Counted from the first letter of the stretch, positions 2,800 to 60,574 are shown. The stretch is DNA of 60,574 nt from an uncultured Salinisphaerales bacterium (GCA_964646895.1 CAZYIP010000001.1:1-60574), one strand, 5' to 3'. Numbers and translations are program-made. Notes: generated by a model from the sequence alone, not told the origin.

Positions 2800-2800
2800 C

Positions 2801-6099: not shown

Positions 6100-6300
6100 G
6101 AATGCCACCACTGCTTATCACCCTCCCGACATGGAAGGGTGATGCTGCGAATCCCCTGTACGCAAAAACCTCGAAATGACTTGACATCCTCCTCTCCCTG
6201 AAGGGAGAGGATTCTCCTACGTTGTTACCAGCGTAGGGTGAGTGGTGTTATCGATACCGAATACCGGTATCTCCCACGGTTCCTGCTTCTCGACCGAATC
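6100..6300 (-). ncRNA. Candidate omega-RNA (reRNA) scaffold overlapping the tnpB 3' end and right end
   Basis: Established TnpB biology places the guide-RNA scaffold over the tnpB 3' end and RE. Three stem-loops are seen here (6215-6238 spanning the stop codon, 6190-6211, 6117-6143). No transcript evidence. Confidence 0.25.
6117..6143. terminator. Hairpin after the FAH gene (terminator, or part of the IS right end)
   Basis: ATCACCCT-N11-AGGGTGAT, 8-bp stem, 21 nt after the FAH stop. No T-tract, so the assignment is ambiguous. Confidence 0.3.
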
Positions 6301-32528: not shown

Positions 32529-32794
32529 TGAAAAACAACTCTGCCCAGGCCGGCGCGCAGCATGATCCGCCACCGCCGAACATGGCACTGCAGTACGCCA
32601 ATGATCGGGCGAAACTAACCGTTTGTCGTAACGTTTTTGGCGGAATTTCGCGTATTGCGGCCATGCAAGCCCAGGCCCGGAACCGGATCTCCCGCGTTAA
32701 GTGCCCAATCGCAAGCCTGATCGTGCAGTAACGACACGATATTTGCCCCGAACGTCCGAATCGAGCCGCGAATTACGCGATATTGTGCGGCAAG

Positions 32795-32821
32795 CCCAAT
32801 TGCGGAGCCCGCAATTGCGGG
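32795..32821. promoter_or_regulatory. Tandem AATTGCGG palindromic sites upstream of tagH (candidate operator pair)
   Basis: Perfect 14-bp palindrome CCCGCAATTGCGGG at 32808-32821 plus a degenerate copy GCCCAATTGCGG at 32794-32805, with centres 14 bp apart, ~110 nt upstream of the tagH ATG. The core 12-mer CCGCAATTGCGG is identical to the site at 25745-25756. Confidence 0.5.
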
Positions 32822-32929
32822 CACGCCGGCGCATGGAGTAAATTGCCGCGCAAGGGCCGTGCACCAAACAAAAGCCGAAGCAGACGCGCGCGCTCCGTTA
32901 TCCGCCCTGGCCATCAAAATGAGTCACAC

Positions 32930-34384: not shown

Positions 34385-34442
34385 GCACAGGCGCCACAGA
34401 ACAGCGAATCTCAACCAACCGACAACGATCCGGGGATCCTTC

Positions 34443-34940: not shown

Positions 34941-34978
34941 CATAGCCAGGGCCTGTTGACGGGCCCCAGGAGAACGAA

Positions 34979-36313: not shown

Positions 36314-36339
36314 CGATTACCCACTGGGGATGAGCGGCC

Positions 36340-40200: not shown

Positions 40201-40736
40201 AGGATTACCTGCAACCGTTCGTCGACACCCGTACCTGGCGGCTCAACTCCGCTGGCCACGGTACTCTCGGCCTGTCGTCGGCCAGTCTCCGCATGCTGCG
40301 TAACGGCGCGGCGATCGGGAGGTTGTTCTTTCATGAGGGTGGGCAGCAGCCGGAGATCAAGTTCAGCCTCACGCCCGTCGATCTCAGCGCCGGCGCAAGC
40401 CGGTTCACGCTCGATGTGGGCGGCCAGTCCATCGAGTACCGGCATGGGCCCAGGCGGCGCTCGAACATGCAGTGGCCGGGCCCGGACGGTCAGGGCGCGC
40501 GCCTCGTCTTCCGGCAGATCGGCGGCGGTGACCTCACCAGCGCACAGGATGGGCCATGGGCATGGTTCAAGTTGCTGGATGCGGCGAAGCTGGAGGCAGG
40601 CGGCAGTGCCGATATCGTCAAGGTGACCTTCAGCGCCGGCAAGCTGCAGGCGCGTTATCAACTGCGCGCCAGCAGCGTGAACAATCCGTTCAGCAGCGAC
40701 GCACTGCGGCAATTCCACTTGCCGGACGCCCTGTAA
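37269..40736 (+). CDS. tssM: T6SS inner-membrane protein TssM (IcmF/VasK) with Walker A
   Basis: 1155 aa. N-terminal TM helices. 'GPPGAGKTT' P-loop. IcmF-type periplasmic C-terminal region. Confidence 0.9.
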   Translation: MKAVKDFFRQRWVITLIGLIALIILVWFGGPYLGLGSSQPLASRFSRLLLVLILVIIWGLHNLWLQLRSRQTNARMVEDMGQAEDDGAALTQQSAEEAATLRERFGEAMAILKRTRMQGSRGRHYVYELPWYVIIGPPGAGKTTALANSGLEFPLAEHFGKDAVRGVGGTRNCDWWFTNDAVLLDTAGRYTTQDSQQSVDSAAWHNFLSLLKKFRPRRPINGILVAISLDDVAQQGSEAREQHARAIRQRIGELYERLGVQVPIYLIFTKVDLLAGFTEVFDDMDREQRAQVWGVTLDGSEAPGADGIAARFGAEYDALLARINQRMLWRLQEERDVTRRGLIHGFPQQMATIKPALENFLEIAFRSNRYEQKAPRVRGIYFTSGTQEGAPIDRIMASLARNFGVGAQALAAHRNQGRSYFLTRLLRDVVFHEAELVGTNRRFEKQLRLLRIGGYAVVLGLGALVIVAWAAGFARNQSYLSALDQRVNDYHTAAHALTPQADLTQALPVLNAAGNLAGTYTQNGDHSPWTLGMGLFHARELASESRAAYRRVLQGLLLPYLDRRVESALIRDAEHPEALQKALTVYLMLGSPDTLQPTVVQRWALQDVASSLGDGTQGRTQFQGHLENLFSGPVPASQPDPQLLAQARQAVCRIPLADQVYSRLVQLAEGAKLPSFSLNTAGPDVARYFRASAGGEIPGLYTAHGYQTIMVKETPALTSQVIDQNRRVCEGFDTASADAKAISSQIQKRYFSEYTTKWDTFLSNLHITGFEGAAQSATTLKALSGDDSPMAKLLTAIAGQLALPAAAPAASPAASDESKKAPETQLVSAHYRDLVALTAAKGDNPPPLAGLLATLGEVRDYLFTITASADSGKAAYTAAAQSMASGGDASIAKLRRMAADLPAPVAGWMNVAATHVWGSVLGGAHHYVNQQWRAIVVEPYRASLQGRYPLSRDASKQATLADFGRFFGPGGILPGFVKDYLQPFVDTRTWRLNSAGHGTLGLSSASLRMLRNGAAIGRLFFHEGGQQPEIKFSLTPVDLSAGASRFTLDVGGQSIEYRHGPRRRSNMQWPGPDGQGARLVFRQIGGGDLTSAQDGPWAWFKLLDAAKLEAGGSADIVKVTFSAGKLQARYQLRASSVNNPFSSDALRQFHLPDAL

Positions 40737-40741
40737 GCGCG

Positions 40742-43724: not shown

Positions 43725-46700
43725 TCATTCCTCACGCTGATCGGGCGGCAGCAGCAACCCGCCGCTGCGAACGCCGAACAGGCGCAGGTCCGGGGAGAAC
43801 GCGGACCAGTCGACATAACCGAGGGATGCCAGGCTGGCGACCTCCCCCTTGGCCGCGCCCTGCAGTATCTGACCGGCGATATTGGTGACCGCGCTGTTGC
43901 TGGTGACGGTCGCTGCGCTTCGGCTGTCGATGTAGGCAATCCCGGCACCGAGCGCCAGCGTGATGTGGCCGTCATCCGGTACATCGAAATAGATCGGCGT
44001 ATCGAACTTGCCGATCTCGGTCAGGGCTTCGAGATTCGCATTGAAGGCAATCACGTTGGGCCGCGCGCCGTTGCTCAGGATACTGCCGCCCAGCGCGCTC
44101 ACGGTTGCATTACCCTGCGCGGCATCCAGTGTCCCCAGCGTGACGGAGCCGTTGTCCGCCGCGTAGCGTATATCGCCGCCGTGGGTGCGGGTGACGGCCT
44201 GCGACGCCATCGTGATCCTGCCGTGCGTGGTTCCCACGCTGACGTTCTGGCCACCACTGTCGATGTTGCCGCTTTGCTGAATATCGCCACCGGCATTCAG
44301 ATCGATCGCGCCCTGCGTATATACATTTCCGGAAAGCCTGAGTGACCCGGCGCGAGCAACGCTGAGCCGCCCCAGCGGGTCCGATGCACTGCCGATCGAA
44401 GCCAGCGTCACATCGCCGCCGCCAGCATCCAGGCTCAGAGCCTGTCCAGCGCCCGTGATTGGTGCGTTGGACAGTAGCAACGCGCCGCCGTTGCTGTTGA
44501 TAGCCGTATCCTTCGACAGGCTGACGGGACCGTTAAACGCGATCTGGCCCCCGTCGGTGGTCACACTGCCGCCATTCAACTGTGTTGCGCCTTCAATGGT
44601 GACGGGCCCACGCACATGAATGGAGCTGTTCAGCGTTTTCACACCGGTGCCGTCCAGGGTCAGCGAGCCAAGCGGGTTGGTGCCGCCGACAGGGCCGTTC
44701 AGGGTTACGCCGTCCTCGCCGCTGGTTAATGTCAGATGTTGATTGCCCGCGGTGGCATCGATGGAACCGGTAAAGAACAGGCGCTTGCCCTGAACATGCA
44801 CATCGCCGCCGTCGAGTTGGACCCGGCTGTTGAAACGCACGGACCCCGTGGCATCGATATCGTCGGCGAGCGTGGTCATATCCGCAGCGACGGTCAGATC
44901 ACCGGCCTCGCCCCTGCCCAGCGTCAGATTGTTGTTGTCAGTAATCCTTATCGTGCCTCCGCTCAGCGCGACCGCACCACCAAAGTCATTGTCCGATTGC
45001 TGCAGAGTGATCGTGCCGCCACCGGCATCGATGTCGCTCGTGCCAGCGACCGCCAGTGTCCCGGATTGGGTAATCGCGCCGCCGTTACTCGTGGCGACCA
45101 GCGCGCCCATATGGCCGGAACCCAGGTCCAGCGCGCCGTGGCTGGTCACGGTGAGGTCGCCGGTGTCGAGCACGCCCAGGGTCAGATCCTTGTCGTCGGT
45201 GATCTGCGTCTTGCCCCCCGTCAGGATAACCGGACCTTGAAAATCGTTGCCGGATCCATTCAGCGTGATGGCACCGACACCCGCATCGATCACGGCCGTG
45301 CCGCCAACCGTCAGCGCACCGGACTGGCTGATCGCGCCGCCGTTGCTTGTGGCGGTCAGGTCTCCGCCGGTCGTGCCCGAACCCAGATCCAGAAGCCCAT
45401 GGCTTGTCACCACGAGATCACCGGTATCAAACGCGCCCAGCGTGAGCCCGTTCCTGTCGGCAATCTCTGCCGCAGCGCCTCTCAGCGTGACCGCGCCGCC
45501 AAAATCGTTTCCGGACTGACCTAGCGTGATGGCACCACTGCCGGCGTCGATGTCGCTCACGCCGGTCACCAGCAGCGCCCCGCTCTGGGTGACATCGTGA
45601 TTGTTGCTGGTGGCGCTCAGTGAGCCGACACTGCCCGTGCCGACGGAGCCGAGGTCCAGATTCCCATGACTGATCACGGTGAGATTGCCGGTGTCGAGCA
45701 CGCCCAGGGTCAGATCGTTTGCGTCGACGATGGTTGCGGAGCCCGCGGTGGTCAGCGACACCGCACCCTGAAAGTCGTTGCCGGGATTGGTCAGCGCAAT
45801 CGAGCTTCCATTGATGTCGCTGATCCCGGAAACCGTCAATGCCTTCAATGCCTTGCTGTCGCTCTGGCTGATTTTGCCACTGCTCTTGACGGTGAGATCG
45901 CCGGTGTCGACCTGGCCCAGCTTCAGCGTGTCCGTGCCCGCAATCGTCGCCGCGCTGCCGACAAGGTCAATCACATCGCCGAAATGGTTGCCGGAAGCGT
46001 CCAGCTGGATGGTACCGGTCCCGGCGTCGAGAGCGGTCGCGCCGGTCACGGTCAGTGCATCGGCCTGGCTGATCGACCCGTCATTGCTGGTGGCGCTCAG
46101 GGTGCCGTCGACGGTGCCGGAACCCAGAACGAGTGCGCCGGTGCTTGCTACGGTCAAATTACCGATGTCGAGCACACCCAGCGTCAGATCGTTCCTGGCG
46201 ATGATCTTTGTTGTGCCGCCGCTCAGCGTGACCGCATCACCGAACTCGTTATCCGATTGCTGCAACGTAATCGCGCCGCCACCGGCATCGATATCGCTCG
46301 CGCCGATGACCGTCAGTGCGCCGGACTGGGTGATGGCACCGCCATCGCTCATCGCGGTCAGTGAGCCCACACTACCGGAGCCCAGATCCAGTGACCCGCC
46401 GCTGGTCACGATCAAATCACCGGTTTGGAGCGCGCCCAGGATCAGACCATTGCTGTCGACGACCTGCGTCTTGCCCCCGGTCAAGGTAACCGCGGCCTGA
46501 AAGTCGTTGCCGGGCGTATCCAGCTCGATCGTACCGGTCCCCGCGTCGATAGCGCTCGCACCGGTCACGACCAGTGCATCGGACTGGCTGATCGGCCCGT
46601 CATTGCTGGTGGCGTCCAGGGTGCCGCCGACGTGGCCGGAACCCAGAACGAGTGCGCCGGTGCTTGTCACGGTCAAATTGCCGGTATCAAGCATGCCCAG

Positions 46701-49700: not shown

Positions 49701-51326
49701 GGAACTCACATTTACGGTGGCATCACCAGAAGGTTTGTACACCCCATCCGCAGGAAGATCGTCTCCTGCATTCTCAATCGTGATGTTGTAAGGATCGAGT
49801 AACCACGAGCCCGATTCACCCTGCATCGCACTCGCGTCCACCGAGCCATTGGCAGTCAGGCCGGTATGGGCCGACGTTTCCACCCAGCCGCCGTCGCCCC
49901 CGCCCGGGCCGCCTCGGGCGCTGACAGCGCCGAAGAAGTTATTGGCATGCGTGCCCCACACCACCACCTGACCGCCGTCACCACGGCCAGTCGCATCGGC
50001 TGAAAGGAAAGCATCAGAGCCGAGATAGGTCGCGTCTGCCAATTGCACGGTACCCACACCATGTGCGTCGCCGCCGACCAGGATGGTGCCGCCGCCGGAC
50101 GCGCCATTGGCGTTGACCAAGGAGAAATCAAACAAGCCCACATGGTATCCGAGAATTTCTGCGGTACCACCACGCGCGCTCGCCGACGATACGTCGATGC
50201 GACTGTTGCCGGTCAGTTCGGTCGTGCCATCGGATTGGATCGTTATTTCGCCGCCGTTACCGCTGCTTCCTTTGGCACTGGTTACACTGCCGCCATCCAG
50301 CGCCACTGTGTCCGCCGCAATCACGTTGACGGAACCGCCATTGGTACCGTCGGCATACAAGTTACCGGACTGGATGATGCTGTTGGCGGTCACGACAATG
50401 GTGCCACCCTGGTCTGAACCGGTACGTGCGGAAGCGTCCAGGGTGCCAGTGTTGACCACGCCCCCGCCCGTTGCCGTCAGGCGAATCACTCCACCTTCAT
50501 TTTCGATGCGCCCGGCCCGGATCACTCCGCTGTTGTTGACCACCTGGCTGAAGACATCGCGTGACTGGTTGCCGGTCAGGAGCACCTGGCCGCCGTCCGC
50601 GTCGATGGTGCCGCTGTTGCTGACCGCTGCGGTGAGATCCGCGGCTTTGTCGATCACGCCCTGATCGATGCGGAAACGCAGCAGCCCGTCGCCATTGAAA
50701 TCGAGGGTGGCGGCGCGGCCGGCACCGAGATTGACATGGCCGTAGCGGGCCAGGATCAGGCCCTCGTTGGCAACCGCACCCCCCATCAGCGTCACCGATC
50801 CGCCGGTCGCGGCCTGGATGAGCCCGCGGTTGATCACCACGCCGGGCACGGTACCGGGCGGCGCTGCGAAACGATAGTCGCCACGCATGAAATCGTCGGT
50901 GGAGATATCCAGCGTGCCGGCCATCAGGCTGCCCACGTTGACACGCGCACCAGCGCCGAAGATGAGCCCGTTGGGATTGATCAGGAACACACGCCCGTTG
51001 GCGTTGATGGTGCCGAGAATCGTGCTGGGATTCTGATCGTAGATACGATTCAGCGCCGCGGCCGAAGCGGATGGCTGGCGAAAGTTCACCACGTCATCGG
51101 GCGCGAGATTGAAACTGCGCCAGTCGATCGCCATCGAGGAGGAGTGCTGGTCGATCACCGTATGCCGGGCATCGGGCCGGCTGATCGTGCCCTGCCCGCC
51201 GACAACCGTACCGCCCTGCGGGGACGCAAGCGCGGAACCCGCGAAGAGCAGGCCGAGCAGAAAAGCGCCCACTCCGGCGAGCCGCCGGCATGCGGGCCCG
51301 TGGAGCACTTCATTTCCCGGTGACAT
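43725..51326 (-). CDS. TpsA-type large exoprotein (filamentous-haemagglutinin family) with N-terminal TPS secretion domain and long beta-helical repeats
   Basis: TPS domain 'IDWRSFNLAPDDVVNFRQPSASAAALNRIYDQNPSTILGTINANGRVFLINPNGLIFG'. ~2500 aa of G/T/S/D/N-rich repeats. ATG 51326 is preceded by GAGAGGGA; the tracked GTG start is 51341. Confidence 0.9.
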   Translation of the reverse strand: MSPGNEVLHGPACRRLAGVGAFLLGLLFAGSALASPQGGTVVGGQGTISRPDARHTVIDQHSSSMAIDWRSFNLAPDDVVNFRQPSASAAALNRIYDQNPSTILGTINANGRVFLINPNGLIFGAGARVNVGSLMAGTLDISTDDFMRGDYRFAAPPGTVPGVVINRGLIQAATGGSVTLMGGAVANEGLILARYGHVNLGAGRAATLDFNGDGLLRFRIDQGVIDKAADLTAAVSNSGTIDADGGQVLLTGNQSRDVFSQVVNNSGVIRAGRIENEGGVIRLTATGGGVVNTGTLDASARTGSDQGGTIVVTANSIIQSGNLYADGTNGGSVNVIAADTVALDGGSVTSAKGSSGNGGEITIQSDGTTELTGNSRIDVSSASARGGTAEILGYHVGLFDFSLVNANGASGGGTILVGGDAHGVGTVQLADATYLGSDAFLSADATGRGDGGQVVVWGTHANNFFGAVSARGGPGGGDGGWVETSAHTGLTANGSVDASAMQGESGSWLLDPYNITIENAGDDLPADGVYKPSGDATVNVSSIASALKGGSEVRIFTNDESAGNSTGNITLESAITASGEGSLYLEAVGSIYVNAGISSDGNAPLNVYLWGNYGGDAEDTSYSANANCPSCEVIIGQNNVANITTTNGDVDVRTGADSGDNSGGSIKVNGEIDTGTGSLAMITGSGDIDAASGKLVIGGASTFDTGEGAITLNNDGNDFSGVVTLKGGNTEIRDSANLTLGTVNSGALTVIGDEITLTGPLTSTSNVNLSAATAGTINLHHGNISADGSVTFNSAVTLGTDVTISSNGITFAHAVNGPYALELDGLAGGVELTSAGADEALSKLTVTSSTASTGSLNIGSGGLSITVTAGDFTQDGEFTVAGASKFDAGEHDINLNDSNNDFQGSVSLIGNNITLVNDGALKLGASTIGGTFDVTAVGDITQNGALTVTGASDIDAGNGAITLTDGGNDFTGAVSLSNSGNHDVALSNGNNALILGDVHVGEGTLEASGAGITQTAGTSITQTAGAGPATFKAGAGVLALGNNGNDFTGTVKLSNSGDHHVTLDNGGNPLTLGVVNTGSGTLTLQNYGGSLTLSQDIKTAGGAIDFSGPVFVDGTSIAIDTTSGGAAGADITFGGDVNGASMDSDGLNLTAGDGAVAFNGALGNSARLQNLTTSSSTFTLASTLDIANNLSITTTGGGIAQSGVWKVGGTSNFDAGDHAINLNGFDNVFTGAVSLSNSGDNEVTLHNNGALQLGASTTGGKLSVTAAGDITQSGKLDIGGEAGFDAGSGTIELNQGENDFRAAVTLKGHGIAVQDANNLTVALLDNGTNGAVSLIAGGTLTLTDAAAAIDTGNSDLTLASNGGALTISNELTGAHVSLTGHSGVTLGSDVTADTLTLRSTDSAIEQTGGSALTVTGTSDIDAGSGAITLNGSGNDFQDSVALIGGKTQIVDSDDLALGALHTGDLIVTSDGPLNLGSGNVGSLTAKSNGGTITQSGALTVAGASDIDADGGTITLQQLDNEFGDAVTLSGGATKIIARNNLTLGMLDTGNLTVTSTGALVLGSGHVGGTLDATSNDGPISQSDALVVTGASAIDAGTGTIELDTPGNDFQAAVTLTGGKTQVVDSNGLILGALQTGDLIVTSGGSLDLGSGSVGSLTAMSDGGAITQSGALTVIGASDIDAGGGAITLQQSDNEFGDAVTLSGGTTKIIARNDLTLGVLDIGNLTVASTGALVLGSGTVDGTLSATSNDGSISQADALTVTGATALDAGTGTIQLDASGNHFGDVIDLVGSAATIAGTDTLKLGQVDTGDLTVKSSGKISQSDSKALKALTVSGISDINGSSIALTNPGNDFQGAVSLTTAGSATIVDANDLTLGVLDTGNLTVISHGNLDLGSVGTGSVGSLSATSNNHDVTQSGALLVTGVSDIDAGSGAITLGQSGNDFGGAVTLRGAAAEIADRNGLTLGAFDTGDLVVTSHGLLDLGSGTTGGDLTATSNGGAISQSGALTVGGTAVIDAGVGAITLNGSGNDFQGPVILTGGKTQITDDKDLTLGVLDTGDLTVTSHGALDLGSGHMGALVATSNGGAITQSGTLAVAGTSDIDAGGGTITLQQSDNDFGGAVALSGGTIRITDNNNLTLGRGEAGDLTVAADMTTLADDIDATGSVRFNSRVQLDGGDVHVQGKRLFFTGSIDATAGNQHLTLTSGEDGVTLNGPVGGTNPLGSLTLDGTGVKTLNSSIHVRGPVTIEGATQLNGGSVTTDGGQIAFNGPVSLSKDTAINSNGGALLLSNAPITGAGQALSLDAGGGDVTLASIGSASDPLGRLSVARAGSLRLSGNVYTQGAIDLNAGGDIQQSGNIDSGGQNVSVGTTHGRITMASQAVTRTHGGDIRYAADNGSVTLGTLDAAQGNATVSALGGSILSNGARPNVIAFNANLEALTEIGKFDTPIYFDVPDDGHITLALGAGIAYIDSRSAATVTSNSAVTNIAGQILQGAAKGEVASLASLGYVDWSAFSPDLRLFGVRSGGLLLPPDQREE
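44900..48750. repeat. Array of ~86-87-aa (~260-bp) degenerate tandem repeats inside tpsA
   Basis: Recurrent unit 'ITQSGALTVxGxSDIDAGxGxITLxxxxNDFxGAVTLxGGxTxIxDxNxLTLGxLDTGxLTVTSxGxLDLGSGxxGxLxATSNGG' read at least a dozen times in the translation. Confidence 0.8.
45980..47100. repeat. Near-identical 519-bp (173-aa) tandem duplication, ~2.1 copies, within the tpsA repeat array
   Basis: 'GCCGCCGCTCAGCGTGACCGCATCACCGAACTC' occurs at 46215 and 46734 (offset 519). 'TCATTGCTGGTGGCG' occurs at 46081 and 46600 (same offset). Long stretches between them align with few substitutions. Confidence 0.8.
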
Positions 51327-51365
51327 GGATGTCCCTCTCACTATCGCAGAGGTACGATATCTTCG

Positions 51366-51424
51366 GTGGGAGCGACTTCAGTCGCGATTCCTGCGCTTCA
51401 ATCGCGGCTAAAGCCGCTCCCACA
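51366..51424. repeat. REP-type palindromic element, copy B (opposite orientation to copy A)
   Basis: GTGGGAGCGACTTCAGTCGCGAT-N12-ATCGCGGCTAAAGCCGCTCCCACA. Its left arm is the exact reverse complement of the right arm of copy A. Spacers differ. Lies in the tpsB-tpsA intergenic region. Confidence 0.85.
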
Positions 51425-51508
51425 ACGGCGGCCGATTCATACATAAAGCTGTACCAGATCAACCGGGCCCGTTGCCCGTGGCCGGATGCCGGGTCGCAAA
51501 TTCCCCGT

Positions 51509-53521
51509 TCAGAAGTCATAGTGGGTCGTGAAATAATATTGAGGCCCATTGCCATCCGAAGGCTCGTCGCCACCGATCGATTTCGCCGCATCGAAACGCA
51601 GGCTCAGAGAGCCGGGCAGATTGAAGCGCAGACCGAGGCCGGCGCCCGCCAGATGTACGGTTTTCTGCTCATTGTTCAACGGCTCGTTGAGCGTGCCTAT
51701 TCCATAATCCACGAAAACAGCGAACTGCAGGATTTCGCCCCAGGTCAGATTATTGAACGCAGGATGACTGGCGAAACCCGGCGCATTGATCAGCCAGTCC
51801 AGTGATGCGAACGCGCCGCTGTCGCGCAGGTATTCCGCCACCGGATAGGCGCGTACGCTGTCAGGCCCGCCCAGCGCCATCTGCTCGATCGAGGTCAGCA
51901 GATCATCCGAATACTGGCCCCGCACGCGGAGCAGCAGCGACTGATTTCGCGTCATCGACTGCAGGCGCGAGAAATTCAGATTGAAACGGGTGAACTCACC
52001 CCCCGCCCGGGTACCGTCGCTACCGACACGGCTGGAATCTTCACTGCCGCCTGCCGGCATCGCACCCAGGAAACCCGGAATGCCCTGGCTGATGCTCAGG
52101 TTGCCCTGGTTGATTCCGTGCAAACGGGTATCGACCAGATCGAATCCCACGCTGGCGCTGAGAACGGACAAATCGTCCCGTGCCACGTCCTGTCCGCTCT
52201 GGGTGATGGTGGCCCGCTTGCGGCTCAGGTCCAGCGTGGCATACAGGTTGGCATTGCGCCCGCGCTGAAAATACTTGCGCAGGTAAAGGTGGCCCATGTC
52301 GGTGACGCCCTCGATGTCGAAGGTCGCGAGATCCTGGCCGACCGAAAAGCTGTTGCGACTGGCCCCCAGGCCCAGTGTCAGGCTCGGTGTGAACAGGGGG
52401 CGCTCATAGAGCACCGATCCGAACAGCCCGTCGGTCGGGTCGAACGTTTGCAACGCGCTCAGGGCGAGCTGGTCCGCAGCACCGGTCGGATTGTTGACTG
52501 CCACGTTGACCTGGCCGCGATACTTGCCGGTGTAGTCGGTGCCGTAGTTGTCGAAGCCGACCCCGACGCTGAAGCGCTGCTCGCGCTGGGCCTTGAGGAC
52601 GAGATCGGTCGTTCCGACGGTTTCACCGGGCTGAAAGACCCCGAACGCGGTCAGGCCGGGATCATCGTTCAGGTACAGCAGCGAGCGATTGATGCCGGCC
52701 TGATCGACCGGCTTGCCGATCAGCGAGGCAAACGGCCGTTGCAGCATCTCGTCGGAATACATCCGGTTGTCTTCCGGCAGTACCCGGCCCAGCTTGCCTT
52801 CCAGCACCCGAATCACGACTTTTCCATCGGCAACCGTCTGCGCCGGCACGTAAGCCTGGGCCAGAATGAAACCATGCTCGCGGTAGTAATGCGTGATCCG
52901 GTTGGCGGTTGCCTGCAACTCGCCCAGCGTGAAACCCTGTTCATCGAATTGCCGCGTCGTGGCGGCGGACTGCTCCAGTTCCCGCAGCGCGGAAGACAGC
53001 TTTTGCTGATCCGCGGCACTGAAGCCCTGAGCATCCGGCTGTTTCTGCTGCGCGATCAGTGCCTGAATCTCCGCCACGCGCCGGCTCATCTGGTCCAGCT
53101 GCTCCGGCGTCACGTTGCGCGAATGGGTTTTCAGGCTCTGCTCGAGGATCGCCTCGATATCCGCCCGCCGGATCCCGGCCTCCGGACGATCCTGCACACC
53201 CTTGAGCACGAAAGCGCGCACACGAATGCGCTTGCCTTCCGTCAGCCCCAGCGGACGCTCGGCGACTGGCGGAATGGGGAAGATACCGGGCTCGGCCGGT
53301 TTCGGCACCGAGGGTTGCGTCAAAACCGGTTGCGCGCCGCCCGGCGTAGCGCCGGCAGGCAAGGTCAAGGGCGGTGCGGCAGCCACGGCACCGGCCACGA
53401 TCAGACCGATGCACGCGAACACCCCCCGGAATGCGAACAACCACCGCCTGTGAGCCGTCAACGCCAAATTTTCATTCCTTGTTTTCGTCGCTACGATACG
53501 GTAGTCACCGCTGCGCAGCAA
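51509..53521 (-). CDS. TpsB outer-membrane transporter (ShlB/FhaC/HecB family, POTRA plus 16-strand barrel)
   Basis: POTRA pattern 'IRVRAFVLKGV...YYREHGFILAQAYVPAQTVADGKVVIRVLEGKLG'. C-terminal barrel ending in '...YYFTTHYDF'. Start is TTG at 53521; an alternative TTG at 53467 is preceded by AAGGAA. Confidence 0.9.
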   Translation of the reverse strand: MLRSGDYRIVATKTRNENLALTAHRRWLFAFRGVFACIGLIVAGAVAAAPPLTLPAGATPGGAQPVLTQPSVPKPAEPGIFPIPPVAERPLGLTEGKRIRVRAFVLKGVQDRPEAGIRRADIEAILEQSLKTHSRNVTPEQLDQMSRRVAEIQALIAQQKQPDAQGFSAADQQKLSSALRELEQSAATTRQFDEQGFTLGELQATANRITHYYREHGFILAQAYVPAQTVADGKVVIRVLEGKLGRVLPEDNRMYSDEMLQRPFASLIGKPVDQAGINRSLLYLNDDPGLTAFGVFQPGETVGTTDLVLKAQREQRFSVGVGFDNYGTDYTGKYRGQVNVAVNNPTGAADQLALSALQTFDPTDGLFGSVLYERPLFTPSLTLGLGASRNSFSVGQDLATFDIEGVTDMGHLYLRKYFQRGRNANLYATLDLSRKRATITQSGQDVARDDLSVLSASVGFDLVDTRLHGINQGNLSISQGIPGFLGAMPAGGSEDSSRVGSDGTRAGGEFTRFNLNFSRLQSMTRNQSLLLRVRGQYSDDLLTSIEQMALGGPDSVRAYPVAEYLRDSGAFASLDWLINAPGFASHPAFNNLTWGEILQFAVFVDYGIGTLNEPLNNEQKTVHLAGAGLGLRFNLPGSLSLRFDAAKSIGGDEPSDGNGPQYYFTTHYDF

Positions 53522-53546
53522 TCACCGCGCCGGCCGCCTCCTATAG

Positions 53547-56500
53547 TCATTTGGAGGCGACGCTCAGAGAGCGCACGACGCGAAAACCGGTAACCGGGTC
53601 AGGCGCGGCAGTCGCCTGGCGCTGCAACGAAACCTGACATCTGGAAAGAGGGTCCTGATAGGACCCGCCGAGCGCCGCCAAACCCGAGCCGTCGCGCGCC
53701 CACTCCTGCGCGTTGCCGAGATAGTTGACCAGCCCCCAGCCATTCTCGTCGCCGGTTTGTACCGAAACCAGATCGAACCCCTTGACCAGTTTGCCGCCGT
53801 CGCGGACCTGGCAATTGAATCCCCCTGCCGGCTGCTGGCCGCTGGCCTCCGCCGCATACTGCCACGCTGCAACACTGGGAATGCTGTAATGGTACCCCGT
53901 ACCCTCGCTGAGCCATTGCGTGTAACGCGTCGCGTCCTTGAAGGAGATATTGGTTACCGGCAGGCTGGAGTCGCTGCCCGCCAGCGCCTTGCACTGCCCG
54001 CTGGCCTTGCAGTACGCGTTGTATTCGGCGATCGAAATTTCATACTTGCTGACCGCGAGAGGTGCGCTCAGGGGGCCACCGGGGGGGACTACAACCATGA
54101 GCGGGCCGCGGACGTTCGGGCCGAGCACATCGTAGCAGGTGCCGCGCGCACGGCGGCCGTAACCGGCCAGATCGGCACGGCAGGGCCGCGGCGACGCGGA
54201 ACCGGCGGCCGCCGCAGGGCCGGCAGACGAGGCCACCGCGCTGCCAGCCCGGGAAAACAATGTGCGGGCGATCACCTCGCGCCGCTGTGCCGCGGCGGGA
54301 GTTTTTTTCGCCAGACGCTGGATGCTGCCATCGAGCGCCGCGATGAAGCGCTTCTCGGCTTCCGGATACAGGGAGGGCTGTTCCGTGCGCAGCTTTTTGA
54401 GGGCCGCCTCGATGCCCGGTTCGTTCAGCGCCTGATCACCGCTCAGCGCGGTCTCGACCTGCTGCGCCAATACCTGCCATTGATACCGGGCCAGGGCGCT
54501 CTTCAGATCGGCATCCTCCGGCGCCAGCTTGAGGCCGGCACTGATCAGCTTTTCCGCGTCCGCATACTTGTGGCCCCGGGCCCGCTGGCTGGCCAGGCGC
54601 GCGTAAGCGGCGGCGATCGTCTGCGGCGCGACCGTGGTAACGAACGGATCATCGCTCGGCATGAGCTTCCTCAATTCGGTCAGCGCCGTGTTGGCGGCGG
54701 ATACGTCGCCCCCCTTCGCGGCGGCGGTCAGCGTCTGCTTGAGCGATGCGATGCGGGCGGTGCGCGCCTGTTGCTCGTTCCTTTCCGCTTGAGCCGCCTC
54801 GGCGGCTTTCAGCGATTTCTCCACCTCGGCAAAGGCGGGCAGGTCCGCGAACGCGCGGGCGCGCGACAGCATTGCGCCGGCGTCCGCAAACTGCTGTTCC
54901 TGCACCGACGTCCGGATCCGCTCCAGGTACAGGCCGGCGATGTGGCCTCGCATATCGTCGACCCATTGCGATCCGGCCGGCAGCTCCGACGCCAGCTGCT
55001 GTAGCTGCTCGTGAAGCTCGGCAGCCCATGACTCATCGAACTTCGGCGTGGCGATCAGATCACTGATGGCCTGCTGTTGCTTGCGTGCCTGCACGAAGCC
55101 GGCCAGGCCGTTGCGATCGCGCAGTTGTGTGCGCGTGTGTGCCAGGGCCTGAAGCAGCACGCTGGATTCCGGTAGCAATGCCACCGACGCTTGCAAGGTC
55201 TGCTGCGCGCGGCGCCAGTTGCCGGCGTGGCCGTCGGCATCAGCCGCCGCAACCAGCTTGCCCGGCAATTGCGCCCGGGTTTCCGCCACGAGAGGATCAT
55301 CAGGTGCCAGCTCCGCAAGCTGGCCCGCAGCGGCCAGCGCATTCTCTGCCTGGTGGGGCATCACCTGATTTTTCTCAAGTATTTCATTCAGAATCTTGTG
55401 TAACCCCATGACTCGCCAGTGGTCAGCCGCGGGTGGCGTCTTCTCGGCCTGGGTAATGGCAGCATATTCGGCGTCCAGCGTGGCACTCAGCGCGGCGTCC
55501 ACGGATTGGGCACGGGCCGCCTCGACCGCGTGCTTGGCGTCCGCCAGTTGCCCGTCTGCACGCGCAGCGCGCGCACGGGCGAGCCAGGCGACCGCAAGGC
55601 TGCTGCGTGCCCAGGACAGATGCTCGCTGTCCACGCCGATTCGGTGCAGTTCATCCAGCAGCGCGGCGGCGTTCGGCTCGTTCGGACCGGCAAGCTGTCC
55701 TTGCGTCAGCGCAGCGGAAAAAGCGGCCTCCAGTTGCGTGACATGTCCCCGCCATTGTTCCCGGGCCGTCGCCAGGCGCTGCGTGCGCTGCTTCAGGAAG
55801 GCCGGTTTCAGTATCCCTCCATAGCGCTGGAGTTCGGCATTTGCGGTGTCCCAGTCGAAACGGTCGGTCGCCCGCATCAGCGCCGCCTCCAGTGCCGGCC
55901 TCAGACGGGCACGGAGATCAGCGACAGTCGGGCTGTCCGGAGCCAGCGCCGCCAGTCGTACGGCAGCGTCATGTACAGCGCTGAAATCCTCCAGCCTTTC
56001 CAGTGTTGGAGTTGATTGCTTGAGTTTTTCATCAAGTTCCGCTACCAGCGCTGCGCGGTCGACCTGCCCGAGCTGGATGCGAGCCTTGTCCTGCACGCTG
56101 AGCAAGGCGTCGTCGTGCGGGAAGCGCTGCAGGCCCATCGTCGCGATCGCCGCGGCACGCTGGTCGTCCGACGCGGCAAGCGCGGTTCGGGCGGCATCCG
56201 CAAACGCGAGGGACACGGCGGAATCGTGCAACAGCGGGTTGGTCGGGTCGATCTGAGCGATCGTATCCAGGAGCTGATCGACACCCGGCTGATCCCCGGA
56301 CGCCAACAGACGCTGTTCGAGCAGGCGCTGATTGAGCTGCCGGACGTAGCTGTCCAGCAACTGATTGCGGTGGTCGACGAGCTGCTGGCCGAGTTGGGTC
56401 AGTTCCGCCGAATCCGGGTACAGATCCCGCACCTGCTTGAGCAGGGCGATTGCCGAGGGGAAATCGTAATGCCCCTGACCGGTGTCCGTTTTGTCGGCAA

Positions 56501-58049
56501 TACGGGTTTTGAAATAGGCCACCAGTTGCGGTCTCACCTTCTGAATCACGATGATGCGTTCATCGTGTTTCAGTCCGTCCAGCTTCTTGAGCGCCTGCGT
56601 CACGACCTCCGGCTTTCCGCTGGTAAGCTCGGTGACAAGGTCGTTCGTCTTGCGCGGGGACACGTAATTAGGCGCCACCACAAACGCCGCTACTCCGCCC
56701 AGTGCAGCAATGACCAGCACCGCTGCGAGTGCGAACGGCCAGCGCGAACGACGCTTCACCGTGAGCTCGCGCAGAAAGTCCTCCACGCTGGCGCTGCGAT
56801 CGTCACGCCGGAATGCCAGCGCCCGATTCAGCGCCTGCTGTTGCTGGCGAGATAACCCGGGCACGGGCGCCGGCTGGAGTTTTTGCTTCAATGCCTCGTC
56901 GGCCGGCAATTTGTTGAACGGATGCCGTCCGGTCAGCAATTCGTAGGCGACGCAGCCCAGTGCATAGATATCGTCACGCGGGTCGGGCTCCTGCCCCTCC
57001 AGCATTTCCAGGCTGGCGTAGGCCGGCGTGAGCGCACCCAGGCTGCCCGCATCGAACAGTGTGTGGTCGTCGTCATTCGCGCCGTCCAGGTGCTTGGCCG
57101 CCTGCGCGATCCCGAAATCGAACACCTTGACTCCGCCGTCCTTGTTCAGGAAGACGTTGCCGGGCTTGAAGTCGGAATGCACCACTGCATTCTTGTGCGC
57201 ATAGGCGAGTGCCTGCGCCATCCCCCGAACAATGGGCAGCGCTTCCGCAACCGCCAGGCCACTCTGGTATTCATTGCGCAACAGGCGATTGAGCGGCTGG
57301 CCGTCGAGGAACTCCATGGTCATGAACACGGTCGCGCCGTCGCGATCGAAATCGAACACGTTGACCACGTTAGGATGCGCCAGAGTCTGCGATTTACGCG
57401 CCTCGCGCTGCAATGCTTTCAGGGATTCCGGATGGCGCTTGAACTCCTCGTTGAGCACCTTGATCGCCACATAGGGGTTGCGATCCTGCGCCTCTTCCTT
57501 GCGCAGGTCGAGCGCCTTGAACACCACCCCCATGCCGCCGCGACCCACGACTTCCTGCAGAACGAAGCGACCCTTGATGGTCATGCCCGTGCGGATTTCA
57601 CCGGCGTCCGGGCCTTGCCACCTTTCCGGATGGGTCCAGCCGGAACCGGTGCTGGAATGCTCCCCCGCGGTGGTGGCATGATCCGCACCCGTGGCATCAT
57701 CCGCCGCGGTATCCGCCTGCCTGGAGACGGGCGGCGGCGGCCGTCGAACGACGGTTTCGTCCCCACCTGCATCCTGGGAGACGATGCGGGTCGCGTCTTC
57801 CGCGGCTCCCGTACCGTGCCCGTCGGCCACCTCGTCGACAATCGCCGCGAGCGCGCGCCATTCTTCTTCCGTCACGCTGTCATTGGCACGAGCCGCCCCG
57901 GCCACGGCGAGCAATTCGTTACGCTGCGACGGCGCGGCCTCCACAGCCTCACGCAACACCGCAAAAACAACCGGCGCTTCGCACTCCCCTCGCACATAGC
58001 GCTCCAGTGCGCGCGCAAAACGCGCGACCGGATCAGCGTCGTGGATCAT
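53547..58049 (-). CDS. Transmembrane Hanks-type Ser/Thr protein kinase with long helical periplasmic region and C-terminal FGE/SUMF1-like domain
   Basis: Kinase motifs 'GRGGMGVVFKA', 'VAIKVL', 'HSDFKPGNVFL' and 'DFGIA'. TM helix 'WPFALAAVLVIAALGGVAAFVVAP'. ~800-aa A/L/Q-rich repeats. C-terminus 'VSKYEISIAEYNAYC...GNAQEWARD...GGSY...GFRVVR' is FGE-sulfatase-like. Confidence 0.9.
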   Translation of the reverse strand: MIHDADPVARFARALERYVRGECEAPVVFAVLREAVEAAPSQRNELLAVAGAARANDSVTEEEWRALAAIVDEVADGHGTGAAEDATRIVSQDAGGDETVVRRPPPPVSRQADTAADDATGADHATTAGEHSSTGSGWTHPERWQGPDAGEIRTGMTIKGRFVLQEVVGRGGMGVVFKALDLRKEEAQDRNPYVAIKVLNEEFKRHPESLKALQREARKSQTLAHPNVVNVFDFDRDGATVFMTMEFLDGQPLNRLLRNEYQSGLAVAEALPIVRGMAQALAYAHKNAVVHSDFKPGNVFLNKDGGVKVFDFGIAQAAKHLDGANDDDHTLFDAGSLGALTPAYASLEMLEGQEPDPRDDIYALGCVAYELLTGRHPFNKLPADEALKQKLQPAPVPGLSRQQQQALNRALAFRRDDRSASVEDFLRELTVKRRSRWPFALAAVLVIAALGGVAAFVVAPNYVSPRKTNDLVTELTSGKPEVVTQALKKLDGLKHDERIIVIQKVRPQLVAYFKTRIADKTDTGQGHYDFPSAIALLKQVRDLYPDSAELTQLGQQLVDHRNQLLDSYVRQLNQRLLEQRLLASGDQPGVDQLLDTIAQIDPTNPLLHDSAVSLAFADAARTALAASDDQRAAAIATMGLQRFPHDDALLSVQDKARIQLGQVDRAALVAELDEKLKQSTPTLERLEDFSAVHDAAVRLAALAPDSPTVADLRARLRPALEAALMRATDRFDWDTANAELQRYGGILKPAFLKQRTQRLATAREQWRGHVTQLEAAFSAALTQGQLAGPNEPNAAALLDELHRIGVDSEHLSWARSSLAVAWLARARAARADGQLADAKHAVEAARAQSVDAALSATLDAEYAAITQAEKTPPAADHWRVMGLHKILNEILEKNQVMPHQAENALAAAGQLAELAPDDPLVAETRAQLPGKLVAAADADGHAGNWRRAQQTLQASVALLPESSVLLQALAHTRTQLRDRNGLAGFVQARKQQQAISDLIATPKFDESWAAELHEQLQQLASELPAGSQWVDDMRGHIAGLYLERIRTSVQEQQFADAGAMLSRARAFADLPAFAEVEKSLKAAEAAQAERNEQQARTARIASLKQTLTAAAKGGDVSAANTALTELRKLMPSDDPFVTTVAPQTIAAAYARLASQRARGHKYADAEKLISAGLKLAPEDADLKSALARYQWQVLAQQVETALSGDQALNEPGIEAALKKLRTEQPSLYPEAEKRFIAALDGSIQRLAKKTPAAAQRREVIARTLFSRAGSAVASSAGPAAAAGSASPRPCRADLAGYGRRARGTCYDVLGPNVRGPLMVVVPPGGPLSAPLAVSKYEISIAEYNAYCKASGQCKALAGSDSSLPVTNISFKDATRYTQWLSEGTGYHYSIPSVAAWQYAAEASGQQPAGGFNCQVRDGGKLVKGFDLVSVQTGDENGWGLVNYLGNAQEWARDGSGLAALGGSYQDPLSRCQVSLQRQATAAPDPVTGFRVVRSLSVASK

Positions 58050-58114
58050 GAAACGTTATATTCCCCATATACATCCGTTACGGCTCAAAACCGGATCACC
58101 CGACTGATTTATAT

Positions 58115-58197
58115 CCCCTCCCCCGCGAGCGGGAGAGGGTGGATCGGGATTTGACCCCCTCTCCCCAGCCCTCATCCCCCAAGGGGGGGCGAGGGGG
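58115..58197. repeat. GC-rich nested hairpin (REP-like) element between PAAR and kinase genes
   Basis: CCCCTCCCCCGCGAGCGGGAGAGGG imperfect hairpin. CCCCCTC(58155-58161)...GAGGGGG(58191-58197) enclosing CCCCCAAGGGGG. Confidence 0.6.
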
Positions 58198-58231
58198 TTC
58201 AATAGACAAGGCGCGTGGACGCCCTGCCCTG

Positions 58232-58519
58232 TCAGCCGATCAGCACGGTAGGCGCGCCGGCAACGATGACTCCGCCGTGGGCGGTTTGTGATGCCAGTTG
58301 TGCCGCCGGCTTTTTGCCGATGAGCACGGTTGCGCTGCCCTTCATGATCGTATCCGGCGGACCGACGCAGGTGACCGGATCGCCCATCCGCGCCGCCGGA
58401 AGCTTGCAAATCAGCACGGTCGGCTCACCCATGGTGACCGGACCGCCCACGTGCGGCTTGGGCCCGTCGAACATGGGGCACGTGTGCATGTCAGTCGCTC
58501 GTGCTGCCGGCATTCCCAT
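58232..58519 (-). CDS. PAAR-domain protein (minimal, 95 aa)
   Basis: 'MPAARATDMHTCPM', 'LPAARMGDPVTCVGP' and 'KPAAQLASQTAHGG' are three PAAR repeats. GGAGGA lies 8 nt upstream. Starts 24 nt after the autotransporter stop. Confidence 0.9.
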   Translation of the reverse strand: MGMPAARATDMHTCPMFDGPKPHVGGPVTMGEPTVLICKLPAARMGDPVTCVGPPDTIMKGSATVLIGKKPAAQLASQTAHGGVIVAGAPTVLIG

Positions 58520-58543
58520 AGCGTGTCTCCTCCGGGTTGGGTC

Positions 58544-60574
58544 TCAGAATTCGAGCCGGATTCCGCCCTGAATCGCGTTACGATGGTAGTTGTTCTGGCC
58601 CAGTGTCGACTCGAAGAACAGAAAGGCCGAGCGGCCCTGAGCGAACTGCGCCGACAAACCTGCCCCCAGATTCAGATAGTCGCGATCCGGGTTATCCGTG
58701 CGCGCCTTGAAGGTCGTTTGTGTCGGATCGTTGACAAAACGGGCGGAAATCCACTGGCTGTCCTGCAGGAACTCGTGTACCCAGCCCACGCGCGTGGTCG
58801 GGGAGAACACGCCAATGCGGGTGGATATCGCGTAGGAAGCCTGCACCAGCAACTCCGTCGTCAGCGAATCGGCATGCTGCGAATCGACGTGCAGCAGTGC
58901 GCCGGCTCCCGGCGCCGTCGGATCCGATGCGGTCTCGTCGTAACCGTCGATATGGGTGGCGAAATAGGTGGCGCGCGCCTGCACGCCGATGGTCAGCGCC
59001 TTGCGGTAGAAATCGTAGCCACCGTCGACACTTACAAGATATTGGTTACCAAGAGGTCCGGCTTCCGCATCGAAGCCGTCGCCACTCAGGTCAACCCGGC
59101 GCGACACATCATAATCATCGCGGCCGTAGGTGAAGATGGCGTCGAAATAATAGCCGTCGGGGTGGTAATAGCTGCCGTACAGCGACAGCATGTAGCTGTC
59201 CAGGTCAACGCCGCCGGAGCGGCCATCGTAGCTGGTATCGTTGCGGGCATAACCCAGTGCCACACCGGACACCCAGCGATCCGTAAAACGATAGTCGCTG
59301 CCCAGGGTGAGATTCCAGATGTCGGTATCGTAGCCCTGCTCGCGCTCGGTGCTGTCGCGCCCGCCGCGAACAACGCTGCCGTTGATATAAACCCCGAGCC
59401 GGCTGAAAGCGCTGACGTTCGTATCGGCAGTCGCCTGCCCCACATCCGGCAGAACGCCATTGGCGGCATACTGCAGCAGGGCACCCGGGATGAAGCCCCC
59501 ATTGAAACGCACGTTCAGCCCGGAGAGATCCAGCCCGGAGGCACCATGGCGCAAATTGCTGAGGCGACCACCGAGATTGGTCAGCTGGCCTTGCAGCATG
59601 CTCAGCGCCATCCGCCGCTGGCTTGCCACTGCCCGCTGGGAAAGCTGGTCGAGCATGCTCCCCTGTGTACCTGACTCCTCCACCATCTGGCAGGTTTCCA
59701 GCAGGCGTTGCTGGCCCGGCGTGCGCTGCTCCGCAGGCATGGCACCGATTGCGGAGCAGGCGGAGTCCAGCGCCCCGGCGACACGCCGCTGGCGATCGTT
59801 GAGGGAAGGATTGTCGGCGATGCCGCCGACGGTAATTTTAACCGGTATGGTGGTGGGTTCCTCACTGTCGGAGTAGCTGTCCCACAGTTCGATCTTGCCC
59901 GATACAGTCTGCCCGACGGTGGCCTCTGCCGGAATCGTATAACTGAAGGTGATGGTGCCACTGCCCCCTTCGATTGCCTCCGGCGTCACCGAACCGAGAT
60001 CGCTGGAAACGGTGATATACGGCGAACCGCTCACCTGGACGTTGGTCGTCACGGTCTGGCCGGGCTTTCCGCTGAGATTCAACGAGCCGGGATCCACGGT
60101 AAGTGGGGACTGATCGTTGTCCTCGATCGAAAGCGTCGCGGGAGAAGAGCTGACGGTAACGTTAAACCCCAAGTCGGAACAGGAGTCCGAATCCTTCACA
60201 ATGGTAAGATTTACAATTTCGGTGGGTTCGACTTCCGAGTCGTCAATTGTAGCGATGGTGGCCGTAGCCGTAGCCAGTGGATCCATCTGCCACACATTCT
60301 GACCATCGTTCGGTCCCGGAACATTGAGCGTAAAATATGATTGTGCGGTCGTGTAGTCTTCGCCAGCGGGCTCCAGATGACCGGTAACAGTGCATGATCC
60401 TTGAGGAACATCTTCCACATTGCCAGGGTCCTTGGCCAGCTCGATGGTGAAGCTTGTCTGATCCCCCTCCGTTACCGACCGACTCGAACTTTCACTGGAA
60501 AACTGAAGCACGCCCGCCGCGGCCGGCACCACCCAGCCAACAGCGGTCATGGTGAAGGCAAGAATGAACCCTGC
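58544..60574 (-). CDS. Autotransporter with Calx-beta-like and Ig-like passenger domains and C-terminal beta-barrel; 5' end probably beyond the window
   Basis: Passenger 'SVTEGDQTSFTIEL...GEDYTTAQSYFTLN...ATIATIDDSEVEPTEIVNLTI' fits a Calx-beta pattern. C-terminal ~300 aa of alternating-hydrophobic strands end in 'GGIRLEF'. The reading frame stays open to the window edge (…AGFILAFTMTAV…). Confidence 0.8.
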   Translation of the reverse strand, partial: AGFILAFTMTAVGWVVPAAAGVLQFSSESSSRSVTEGDQTSFTIELAKDPGNVEDVPQGSCTVTGHLEPAGEDYTTAQSYFTLNVPGPNDGQNVWQMDPLATATATIATIDDSEVEPTEIVNLTIVKDSDSCSDLGFNVTVSSSPATLSIEDNDQSPLTVDPGSLNLSGKPGQTVTTNVQVSGSPYITVSSDLGSVTPEAIEGGSGTITFSYTIPAEATVGQTVSGKIELWDSYSDSEEPTTIPVKITVGGIADNPSLNDRQRRVAGALDSACSAIGAMPAEQRTPGQQRLLETCQMVEESGTQGSMLDQLSQRAVASQRRMALSMLQGQLTNLGGRLSNLRHGASGLDLSGLNVRFNGGFIPGALLQYAANGVLPDVGQATADTNVSAFSRLGVYINGSVVRGGRDSTEREQGYDTDIWNLTLGSDYRFTDRWVSGVALGYARNDTSYDGRSGGVDLDSYMLSLYGSYYHPDGYYFDAIFTYGRDDYDVSRRVDLSGDGFDAEAGPLGNQYLVSVDGGYDFYRKALTIGVQARATYFATHIDGYDETASDPTAPGAGALLHVDSQHADSLTTELLVQASYAISTRIGVFSPTTRVGWVHEFLQDSQWISARFVNDPTQTTFKARTDNPDRDYLNLGAGLSAQFAQGRSAFLFFESTLGQNNYHRNAIQGGIRLEF

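Follow-up and report, generated by a model that had tools for sequence, protein, structure and literature searches.

Genetic linkage of a two-partner secretion pair to the noncanonical kinase of a type VI secretion locus in an uncultured Salinisphaerales bacterium, and its possible role as an envelope sensor

The cues that determine when and where a type VI secretion system (T6SS) fires are known for few species; TagQRST provides them in Pseudomonas aeruginosa and RtkS in Serratia. The threonine phosphorylation pathway to which these cues are fed has been described in the P. aeruginosa H1-T6SS (TagQRST-PpkA-PppA-Fha1, with TagF), and in Serratia (RtkS-PpkA) and Acidovorax (TssW-PpkA-Fha) the T6SS kinase likewise takes lineage-specific periplasmic or accessory inputs. 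Two-partner secretion (TPS; type Vb) systems, such as FhaB/FhaC, ShlA/ShlB, and CdiA/CdiB, have so far been known only for the export of adhesins, cytolysins, and toxins. Here we analyze a 60,574-nucleotide (nt) stretch of DNA from an uncultured Salinisphaerales bacterium (GCA_964646895.1, CAZYIP010000001.1:1-60574; referred to below as the window), in which a tpsB-tpsA pair directly follows the gene for a transmembrane Hanks-type Ser/Thr kinase that ends in a formylglycine-generating enzyme (FGE)-like domain, and in which this block converges on a T6SS operon. The link among kinase, TPS pair, and T6SS is real and conserved, and the link to a neighboring PAAR gene and autotransporter gene is local. 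From gene context, we give even chances to the interpretation that this locus encodes a T6SS threonine phosphorylation switch whose nonclassical kinase has TpsB/TpsA as its envelope sensory arm.

The plus-strand operon fha-tssJ-tssK-tssL-tssM-tagF-pppA (32783-42205) has the same gene order, fha-tssJKLM-tagF-pppA, as the P. aeruginosa H1-T6SS, and it ends without a kinase gene. Its first gene, fha/tagH (32783..34384; start codon uncertain), encodes a protein of the TagH/Fha1 type with Pfam matches to T6SS_FHA_C (1.8e-55) and FHA (4.5e-18), which presumably accepts the phosphate and serves as the output of the pathway. The genes for the T6SS membrane complex and baseplate link were assigned with Pfam: tssJ (34287-34940), tssK (34979-36313), tssL (36340-37272), and tssM (37269-40736). 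TssM matches NCBIfam TIGR03348 with 1159 bits, is at most 46% identical to anything except its counterpart in one close relative (L001, described below), and has 0 Pseudomonas proteins among its best 120 matches. The operon closes with tagF (40556..41419), which encodes the posttranslational T6SS repressor and probably begins downstream of the start of its open reading frame (ORF), judging from a TagF_N (Pfam) domain that starts at ORF residue 70, and with pppA (41456..42205), which encodes a PP2C phosphatase (Pfam PP2C, PP2C_2, and SpoIIE). Facing this operon on the minus strand are, in the order of transcription, the autotransporter gene (58544..60574), the PAAR gene (58232..58519), the kinase gene (53547..58049), tpsB (51509..53521), and tpsA (43725..51341), so that the kinase gene lies 11.3 kb from pppA and on the other strand. 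A first-pass annotation of the window had described five tightly spaced, co-directional genes converging on the fha/pppA operon, and both the array and its convergent orientation were confirmed by ORF listing and by Pfam and NCBIfam scans. The gaps are 24 nt (autotransporter to PAAR), 182 nt (PAAR to kinase), 25 nt or 85 nt (kinase to tpsB, with TTG 53521 or TTG 53461 as the tpsB start), and 182 nt (tpsB to tpsA, with ATG 51326 as the tpsA start).

The kinase (1,500 amino acids [aa]) consists of an N-terminal cytoplasmic region, a Pkinase domain (residues 164 to 433), one transmembrane segment (440 to 458), ~830 aa of periplasmic helical repeats, and an FGE/PvdO-like domain (~1290 to 1500). 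The catalytic residues K197, D293 (in HSDFKPGN), and D311 of the D-F-G motif are invariant in 34 homologues, and several homologues have TPR matches in Pfam in the repeat region. A Pfam scan of the kinase returned only Pkinase and FGE-sulfatase (PF03781, 1.9e-12, residues 1329 to 1453) and no VWA domain, in contrast to P. aeruginosa PpkA, the periplasmic part of which is of the vWA type. The C-terminal domain, which has six invariant cysteines, has the FGE fold according to an AlphaFold (AF2) model (pLDDT 82) whose best neighbor in the PDB is PvdO (TM-score 0.65), followed by FGEs, CarF, ToxD, PorK, and the diversity-generating retroelement (DGR) variable proteins TvpA and Mtd. In profile comparisons, PvdO, ToxD, the 5aoh chain, and PorK of the type IX secretion system (T9SS) score above true FGEs, which align only to the middle of the domain (profile positions 79 to 176). 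PvdO, T9SS PorK/GldK, and the DGR variable proteins, the best matches in sequence and fold, act as scaffolds or ligand binders in the periplasm or at the outer membrane and not as sulfatase maturases, and based on these matches and on the model we consider the FGE-like domain to be probably noncatalytic and ligand binding. Unlike in those proteins, the fold is fused here to a transmembrane kinase, and identity to them is 16 to 22%.

In having an FGE/SUMF1 (PF03781) fold in its predicted periplasmic part, the kinase resembles a component of the P. aeruginosa pathway. COG1262 is the COG of FGE/SUMF1. TagR, which activates PpkA from the periplasm in P. aeruginosa, is assigned to COG1262 in a recent review. 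The two systems thus both have a COG1262 periplasmic element (TagR in one; a fused domain and free FGE proteins in the other), a Hanks kinase that spans the membrane once and has a periplasmic sensor part, and an outer-membrane component upstream of the kinase. They differ in that the periplasmic part of the kinase is made of TPR-like repeats and an FGE-like domain instead of a vWA-type domain, in that tagQ, tagS, and tagT are missing here and a TpsB/TpsA pair stands in their place, and in that the kinase block of the window is convergent with pppA rather than downstream of it. We also looked for orthology to TagR itself (PA0071); when the free FGE protein from locus L002 served as the query, the 120 matches listed were all environmental proteins, with no P. 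aeruginosa entry among them.

Both members of the secretion pair have the features of a type Vb system. TpsB (Omp85 type; starts at TTG 53521 or 53461, the latter being the likely one since it stands just before a signal-peptide-like segment) matches ShlB (PF03865, 1.3e-33) and POTRA_2 (PF08479, 3.8e-15), is encoded next to tpsA, and is 38 to 54% identical to TpsBs linked to the same kinase family elsewhere. TpsA (2,533 to 2,538 aa, with its start at 51341 or at ATG 51326) has a signal peptide (hydrophobic segment 21 to 39) and a TPS domain (PF05860, 5.6e-35; TIGR01901, 2.6e-22). It also has a second conserved block (residues ~385 to 515, signature GGDGGxVExS...WLLDP), 15 DUF5649 repeats, and a C-terminal region of ~215 aa that is also present in the TpsA of locus L004. 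At the DNA level, repeats of ~258 to 261 nt (86 to 87 aa), matching DUF5649, are visible in the passenger-coding part of tpsA (44846-49285) in at least eight copies with 60 to 73% identity. Only the first ~520 residues are conserved among the TpsAs of such loci, some of which are just 489 to 560 aa long. In this, and in having no toxin, VENN, or immunity features, the pair departs from the classical TPS systems: no toxin or pretoxin (VENN) family was found in TpsA with Pfam or NCBIfam, and downstream of tpsA is a convergent vapBC pair and not an immunity ORF, so the pair does not have the makeup of a contact-dependent inhibition system.

We asked how widely the arrangement recurs by scanning one genome per GTDB species with an alignment of the kinase family as the query and labeling the ORFs with profiles seeded from the window proteins. 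The scan gave 80 loci with kinases 31 to 45% identical to the query (none above 45%), of which 70 have a PP2C gene and 56 an FHA protein gene. Among the 35 loci whose flanks reach 7 kb or more upstream and 4 kb or more downstream, TpsB is present in 27. It is present in 8 of the 10 T6SS-type loci, always downstream and co-directional, and in 19 of the 25 others, in 18 of which it is upstream and divergent. The order tagF-pppA-kinase(FGE)-tpsB-tpsA, in some cases with a free FGE protein between kinase and tpsB, occurs in 17 loci (L002, L004, L013, L019, L026, L030, L033, L059, L066, L077, L084, L088, L097, L098, L102, L124, and L143). The fullest example is L002 (fha-tssJKLM-tagF-pppA-kinase(FGE)-FGE protein-TpsB-large exoprotein); L004 is the same except that the free FGE protein is missing and the last gene encodes a TPS-domain protein. 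In three loci (L026, L151, and L159) the kinase ORF abuts tpsB or overlaps with it. The search for kinase(FGE)-tpsB-tpsA beside fha/pppA in other genomes was strongly positive, and because the array is conserved in this way it is more than a chance juxtaposition.

Kinase homologues stand directly after pppA in at least 17 loci. The first-pass annotation had noted that the ppkA slot of the window is empty and that a structurally different kinase lies elsewhere; the operon does end without a kinase, but the kinase is not foreign to it, since its family usually fills this very slot in the related T6SS clade. We conclude that the window holds a rearranged, convergent version of one conserved unit, and we consider it highly probable that the kinase is the PpkA equivalent of this T6SS. 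The family extends well beyond these loci: the best homologue of the kinase is just 62% identical, the architecture is very common in uncultured Gammaproteobacteria, cultured carriers include Dyella ginsengisoli, Frateuria, and Povalibacter uvarum, and a search with the periplasmic part alone gave 391 clusters at E <= 1e-30.

The reciprocal comparison started from the other partner. In a metagenome scan seeded with the TpsB subfamily (loci 36 to 51% identical to the window TpsB), 24 of the 35 loci whose flank reached 5 kb or more had kinase, PP2C, or FGE genes upstream of tpsB, as did 19 of the 25 whose flank reached 8 kb or more; 16 layouts were divergent and 9 co-directional. The kinase-TPS link is thus kept across co-directional, divergent, and, in the window, convergent gene orders. 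Pairwise distances of kinase and TpsB are correlated (r = 0.94, 42 loci). In a neighbor-joining tree of the kinases, the window groups with the T6SS loci that have TpsB downstream, and the TPS link is found on both sides of the deepest splits. Based on this linkage, functional coupling of the TPS pair to the kinase is likely. As a separate observation, four loci (L099, L100, L115, and L119) have a TpsB of the same subfamily divergent from a gene for an FHA-domain protein of ~500 aa, with no kinase within the available flank.

The constant set is PP2C, kinase(FGE), and TpsB/TpsA, which recur as a group with differing FHA outputs. The FHA partner is TagH in T6SS loci; in 9 of 10 non-T6SS loci tested it is a fusion of a class III nucleotidyl cyclase with FHA (~300 aa), and in one (L016) it is an FHA-EAL protein. 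Loci of the cyclase-FHA type include L008, L015, L022, L029, L038, L040, L063, L069, and L074. The first of these has no T6SS, and its TpsA<-TpsB<-rotamase genes are divergent from those for cyclase-FHA, PP2C, kinase(FGE), and an FGE protein. From their gene content, these loci look like an uncharacterized pathway from Ser/Thr phosphorylation to cyclic nucleotides. Accessory genes vary as well: a free FGE protein of ~560 aa between kinase and tpsB in 17 of the 80 loci, a SurA/PpiC-like rotamase upstream of tpsB in 28 loci, a membrane protein of ~200 to 250 aa after the kinase in 36 loci, and a 212-aa lipoprotein like that of the window in 7 other loci. Related T6SS clusters fill the slot differently. 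In Thioalbus denitrificans (L178) it holds a kinase of 812 aa, after which come CsgG-like and PEGA proteins, and Methylotuvimicrobium sp. KM1 (L177) has a TagF-PP2C fusion and no kinase. In contrast to the TPS pair, the RtkS, TssW, and Thioalbus inputs do not include a type Vb pair, and none of them is known outside T6SS.

Full-text literature searches found no paper that links TPS with T6SS/PpkA, with FHA, or with a Hanks kinase/PP2C pair, and papers that name both treat them separately; nor did any join TagR, PpkA, and formylglycine. A survey of Xanthomonadales T6SS that covers Dyella mentions no TPS, hemolysin, or sulfatase genes, and a review of T6SS accessory factors does not mention TPS. 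This agrees with the earlier statement that no coupling of TPS to a threonine phosphorylation pathway had been described, and TPS systems are not otherwise known to have a genetic tie to a module of Hanks kinase, PP2C, and FHA. The pathway itself is known; what is new is the TPS coupling, and the kinase family is large and apparently undescribed.

The first-pass annotation had left two mechanisms side by side, a sensing input and kinase control of exoprotein release. Of these, the comparative data favor TPS as the input, since the output varies while kinase and TPS stay constant. A variable cytoplasmic output joined to a constant envelope-spanning part is the pattern expected of a sensor, and the envelope part is therefore favored in that role. 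In such a switch, TpsB would export TpsA to the cell surface, and the TPR/FGE part of the kinase would read the state of TpsA/TpsB in the periplasm, that state being either TpsA engaging another cell or surface or an export event that is stalled or released. The kinase would then autophosphorylate and phosphorylate TagH, TagF would be overcome, and T6SS assembly would be licensed, after which PppA would reset the switch. CdiA and FhaB hold their C-terminal part in the periplasm (secretion arrest) until they are triggered, and therefore a TpsA can bridge the outer membrane. We put the direction of signaling from TPS through the periplasmic TPR/FGE domain and the kinase to TagH, opposed by PppA and TagF, at an even chance or slightly below; it is read from gene context. 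In the window genome, the block that would act in this way stands opposite the fha operon and is joined to genes for PAAR, the autotransporter, a caspase-like lipoprotein, and a short paralogous kinase.

More tentatively, the type Vb pair may serve generally as a signal receiver and not as an adhesin or toxin exporter, with a surface TpsA held by TpsB reporting contact or envelope state to the TPR/FGE domain, and the same PP2C-kinase-TpsBA cassette may drive different FHA outputs (T6SS firing, cyclic nucleotide synthesis, cyclic di-GMP hydrolysis) across hundreds of Gammaproteobacterial lineages. The window locus and the ~390 clusters of the kinase family point to an input to the T6SS that is widespread and different from those described, one that comes from a two-partner secretion pair. 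If TPS is the sensor, this would be a direct molecular route from surface contact to T6SS assembly and a new trans-envelope signaling route, it would give a signaling role to a secretion family with none so far, and it would make the Ser/Thr cassette a modular one that also drives cyclic nucleotide outputs.

Several observations weigh against the sensory interpretation. The direction of signaling and a contact between the kinase and TpsA/TpsB are both inferred from gene context. The kinase occurs in T6SS loci without TPS in L006 (where, in the ppkA slot, it is followed by genes for a small protein, a Sel1 protein, and PAAR), L010, L021, L047, L065, and L071, and ~30% of the loci of the TpsB subfamily have no kinase nearby. 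In L001, one of the two closest relatives of the window, the kinase is cut to 996 aa and lies tail to tail with pppA; the T6SS genes are kept, and the FGE part, tpsB, and tpsA are gone. The correlation between kinase and TpsB distances could largely mirror shared species history. Many of the non-T6SS loci have housekeeping neighbors in common and therefore are not independent samples but one vertically inherited arrangement. The link to TagR holds at the superfamily level only, via COG1262. Genes for the sheath, the baseplate, Hcp, VgrG, and ClpV were not found in the 60,574 nt of the window.

The same linkage would also fit a signal that ran the other way, with the kinase/PP2C/FHA pathway controlling whether TpsA is made or released, perhaps via a regulator that depends on FHA, and with TPS as an output timed to coincide with T6SS firing, for instance, a prey-holding adhesin. 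The co-directional placement of tpsB-tpsA behind the kinase in T6SS-type loci agrees with this, as do the long, adhesin-like TpsA passengers of many loci. We nevertheless think it unlikely, because an outer-membrane transporter is out of reach for a kinase domain in the cytoplasm, a separate and variable FHA output (TagH, cyclase, or EAL) is already part of the module, the shortest module TpsAs are too short for a typical adhesin or toxin, and a kinase with so large a periplasmic domain requires a ligand in the periplasm. The FGE fold, supported by profile and model, together with the free FGE proteins and the rotamase described above, could also indicate that the FGE-like domain and free FGE proteins are periplasmic maturation enzymes or chaperones for TpsA and that the kinase merely reports on maturation or is coupled to it. 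This seems quite improbable given that the best matches of the domain are the non-FGE members PvdO, ToxD, and PorK, that true FGEs align only to its central part, and that TpsA has only three cysteines (residues 18, 633, and 636), none of them within the conserved blocks. A cysteine-containing FGE-type recognition site was sought in TpsA, and these three cysteines were all that was found.

It is also conceivable that TPS, PAAR, autotransporter, and kinase are merely cargo of one mobile or rearranging island without functional wiring, in a locus that may be decaying. The frameshifted vapC of the vapBC pair and the palindrome copies that flank the junction would fit such a history, as would the L001 deletion of TPS and FGE domain, the T6SS core genes missing from the window, and the conserved chromosomal neighbors common to many non-T6SS loci. 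We regard mere co-location as quite improbable, however, since the linkage is reciprocal and outlasts several gene orders and two genomic contexts (T6SS and cyclase-FHA), and since chance would place a TpsB within 10 kb of any one gene at a rate of ~1% by a rough, uncomputed estimate.

For the genes upstream of the kinase the picture is different from that of the conserved unit. The PAAR gene encodes a minimal spike-tip protein of 95 aa (PF05488, 2.3e-24), and the autotransporter (beta-domain PF03797, 1.5e-55), seen in the window as an ORF of 668 aa, extends beyond the end of the window. Logan contig L089, which is 99.8% identical to window positions 55025-60574 and continues 4.4 kb further, contains the full-length form of 705 aa, with an N-terminal hydrophobic leader and a passenger without a Pfam match; the type Va combination of this leader with a C-terminal beta-barrel is fully visible only there. 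Upstream of the autotransporter and co-directional with it (L089 positions 1-4237) are genes for a lipoprotein with Sel1, coiled-coil, and caspase-like Peptidase_C14 parts, a Hanks kinase of 521 aa, and a DUF6931 protein. This second kinase, a short paralogue of the large one, has a transmembrane segment and a short periplasmic tail. The array thus comprises no fewer than eight genes and the locus two kinases. The earlier description of the large kinase as the only Hanks kinase in the window is correct inside the window, but the paralogue lies just past its end. Dyella and Frateuria loci likewise have a short and a long kinase in tandem.

The closest relatives, L001 and L003 (~75% nucleotide identity), retain autotransporter-PAAR-kinase, which in L003 runs on into tpsB. 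The convergent layout therefore predates these lineages, and loss of the TPS arm is possible, as in L001, which is also without vapBC and the 212-aa lipoprotein gene. Among 167 loci, homologues of the autotransporter were found in L001 and L003 only and homologues of the Sel1-caspase protein in none; both are therefore lineage-specific additions. The conserved adjacency of PAAR and autotransporter that the first-pass annotation had proposed to look for was seen in these two relatives alone. We conclude that PAAR and autotransporter are confined to the lineage of the window and lie outside the conserved module.

Between the two converging gene blocks are three further genes. The first (42350..42988, plus strand) encodes a lipoprotein of 212 aa that has an LTAGC lipobox and matches no Pfam family. 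Its homologues (E 1e-50 to 1e-77) are confined to the vicinity of TpsB/kinase loci (L019, with two copies, and L044, L061, L078, L080, L158, and L172), which makes it a sporadic accessory of the module; by loose analogy to TagQ, it could be an outer-membrane accessory. Next comes the vapBC pair (43040..43711), with an AbrB-type vapB (43040-43327, plus strand) and a vapC PIN gene split over two frames (N-terminal part at 43320-43472, C-terminal part at 43469-43708), which is either a frameshifted toxin gene or a sequencing error. The pair occupies the exact point of convergence of the T6SS operon and tpsA; it is outside the module and marks a rearrangement or insertion point. Two copies of a 95-nt repetitive extragenic palindrome (REP)-like sequence, 79% complementary to each other and Pseudomonas-like, lie after pppA (42220..42314) and in the tpsB-tpsA spacer (51349..51443), and they bracket the lipoprotein-vapBC-tpsA segment. 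REP-REP recombination was considered as the cause of the inverted layout, and a flip of this segment does not regenerate pppA-kinase-tpsB-tpsA.

Two spacers of the array are strongly structured. The one between PAAR and kinase (58050..58231, minus strand; z = -3.05 for its structure) is GC rich and contains no consensus promoter or terminator, and the tpsB-tpsA spacer, with its REP palindrome, forms a strong hairpin without a U-tract (z = -3.86). A scan of 42000-60574 for consensus promoters and terminators found fewer sites than in shuffled sequences and none at the junctions, a result that is uninformative about cotranscription. There is no divergent tssA operon in the window. Positions 1-28000 encode transport and metabolic proteins and an IS605 OrfB; the latter, an IS605 OrfB/TnpB-like gene (6217-7551, minus strand; OrfB_IS605, Cas12f1-like TNB, and HTH_OrfB), lies amid metabolic genes. 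Directly upstream of fha is a gene for an MHYT-PAS-PAS-GGDEF diguanylate cyclase (30447-32528), and in L001 a PAS-GGDEF-EAL protein is encoded at this position.

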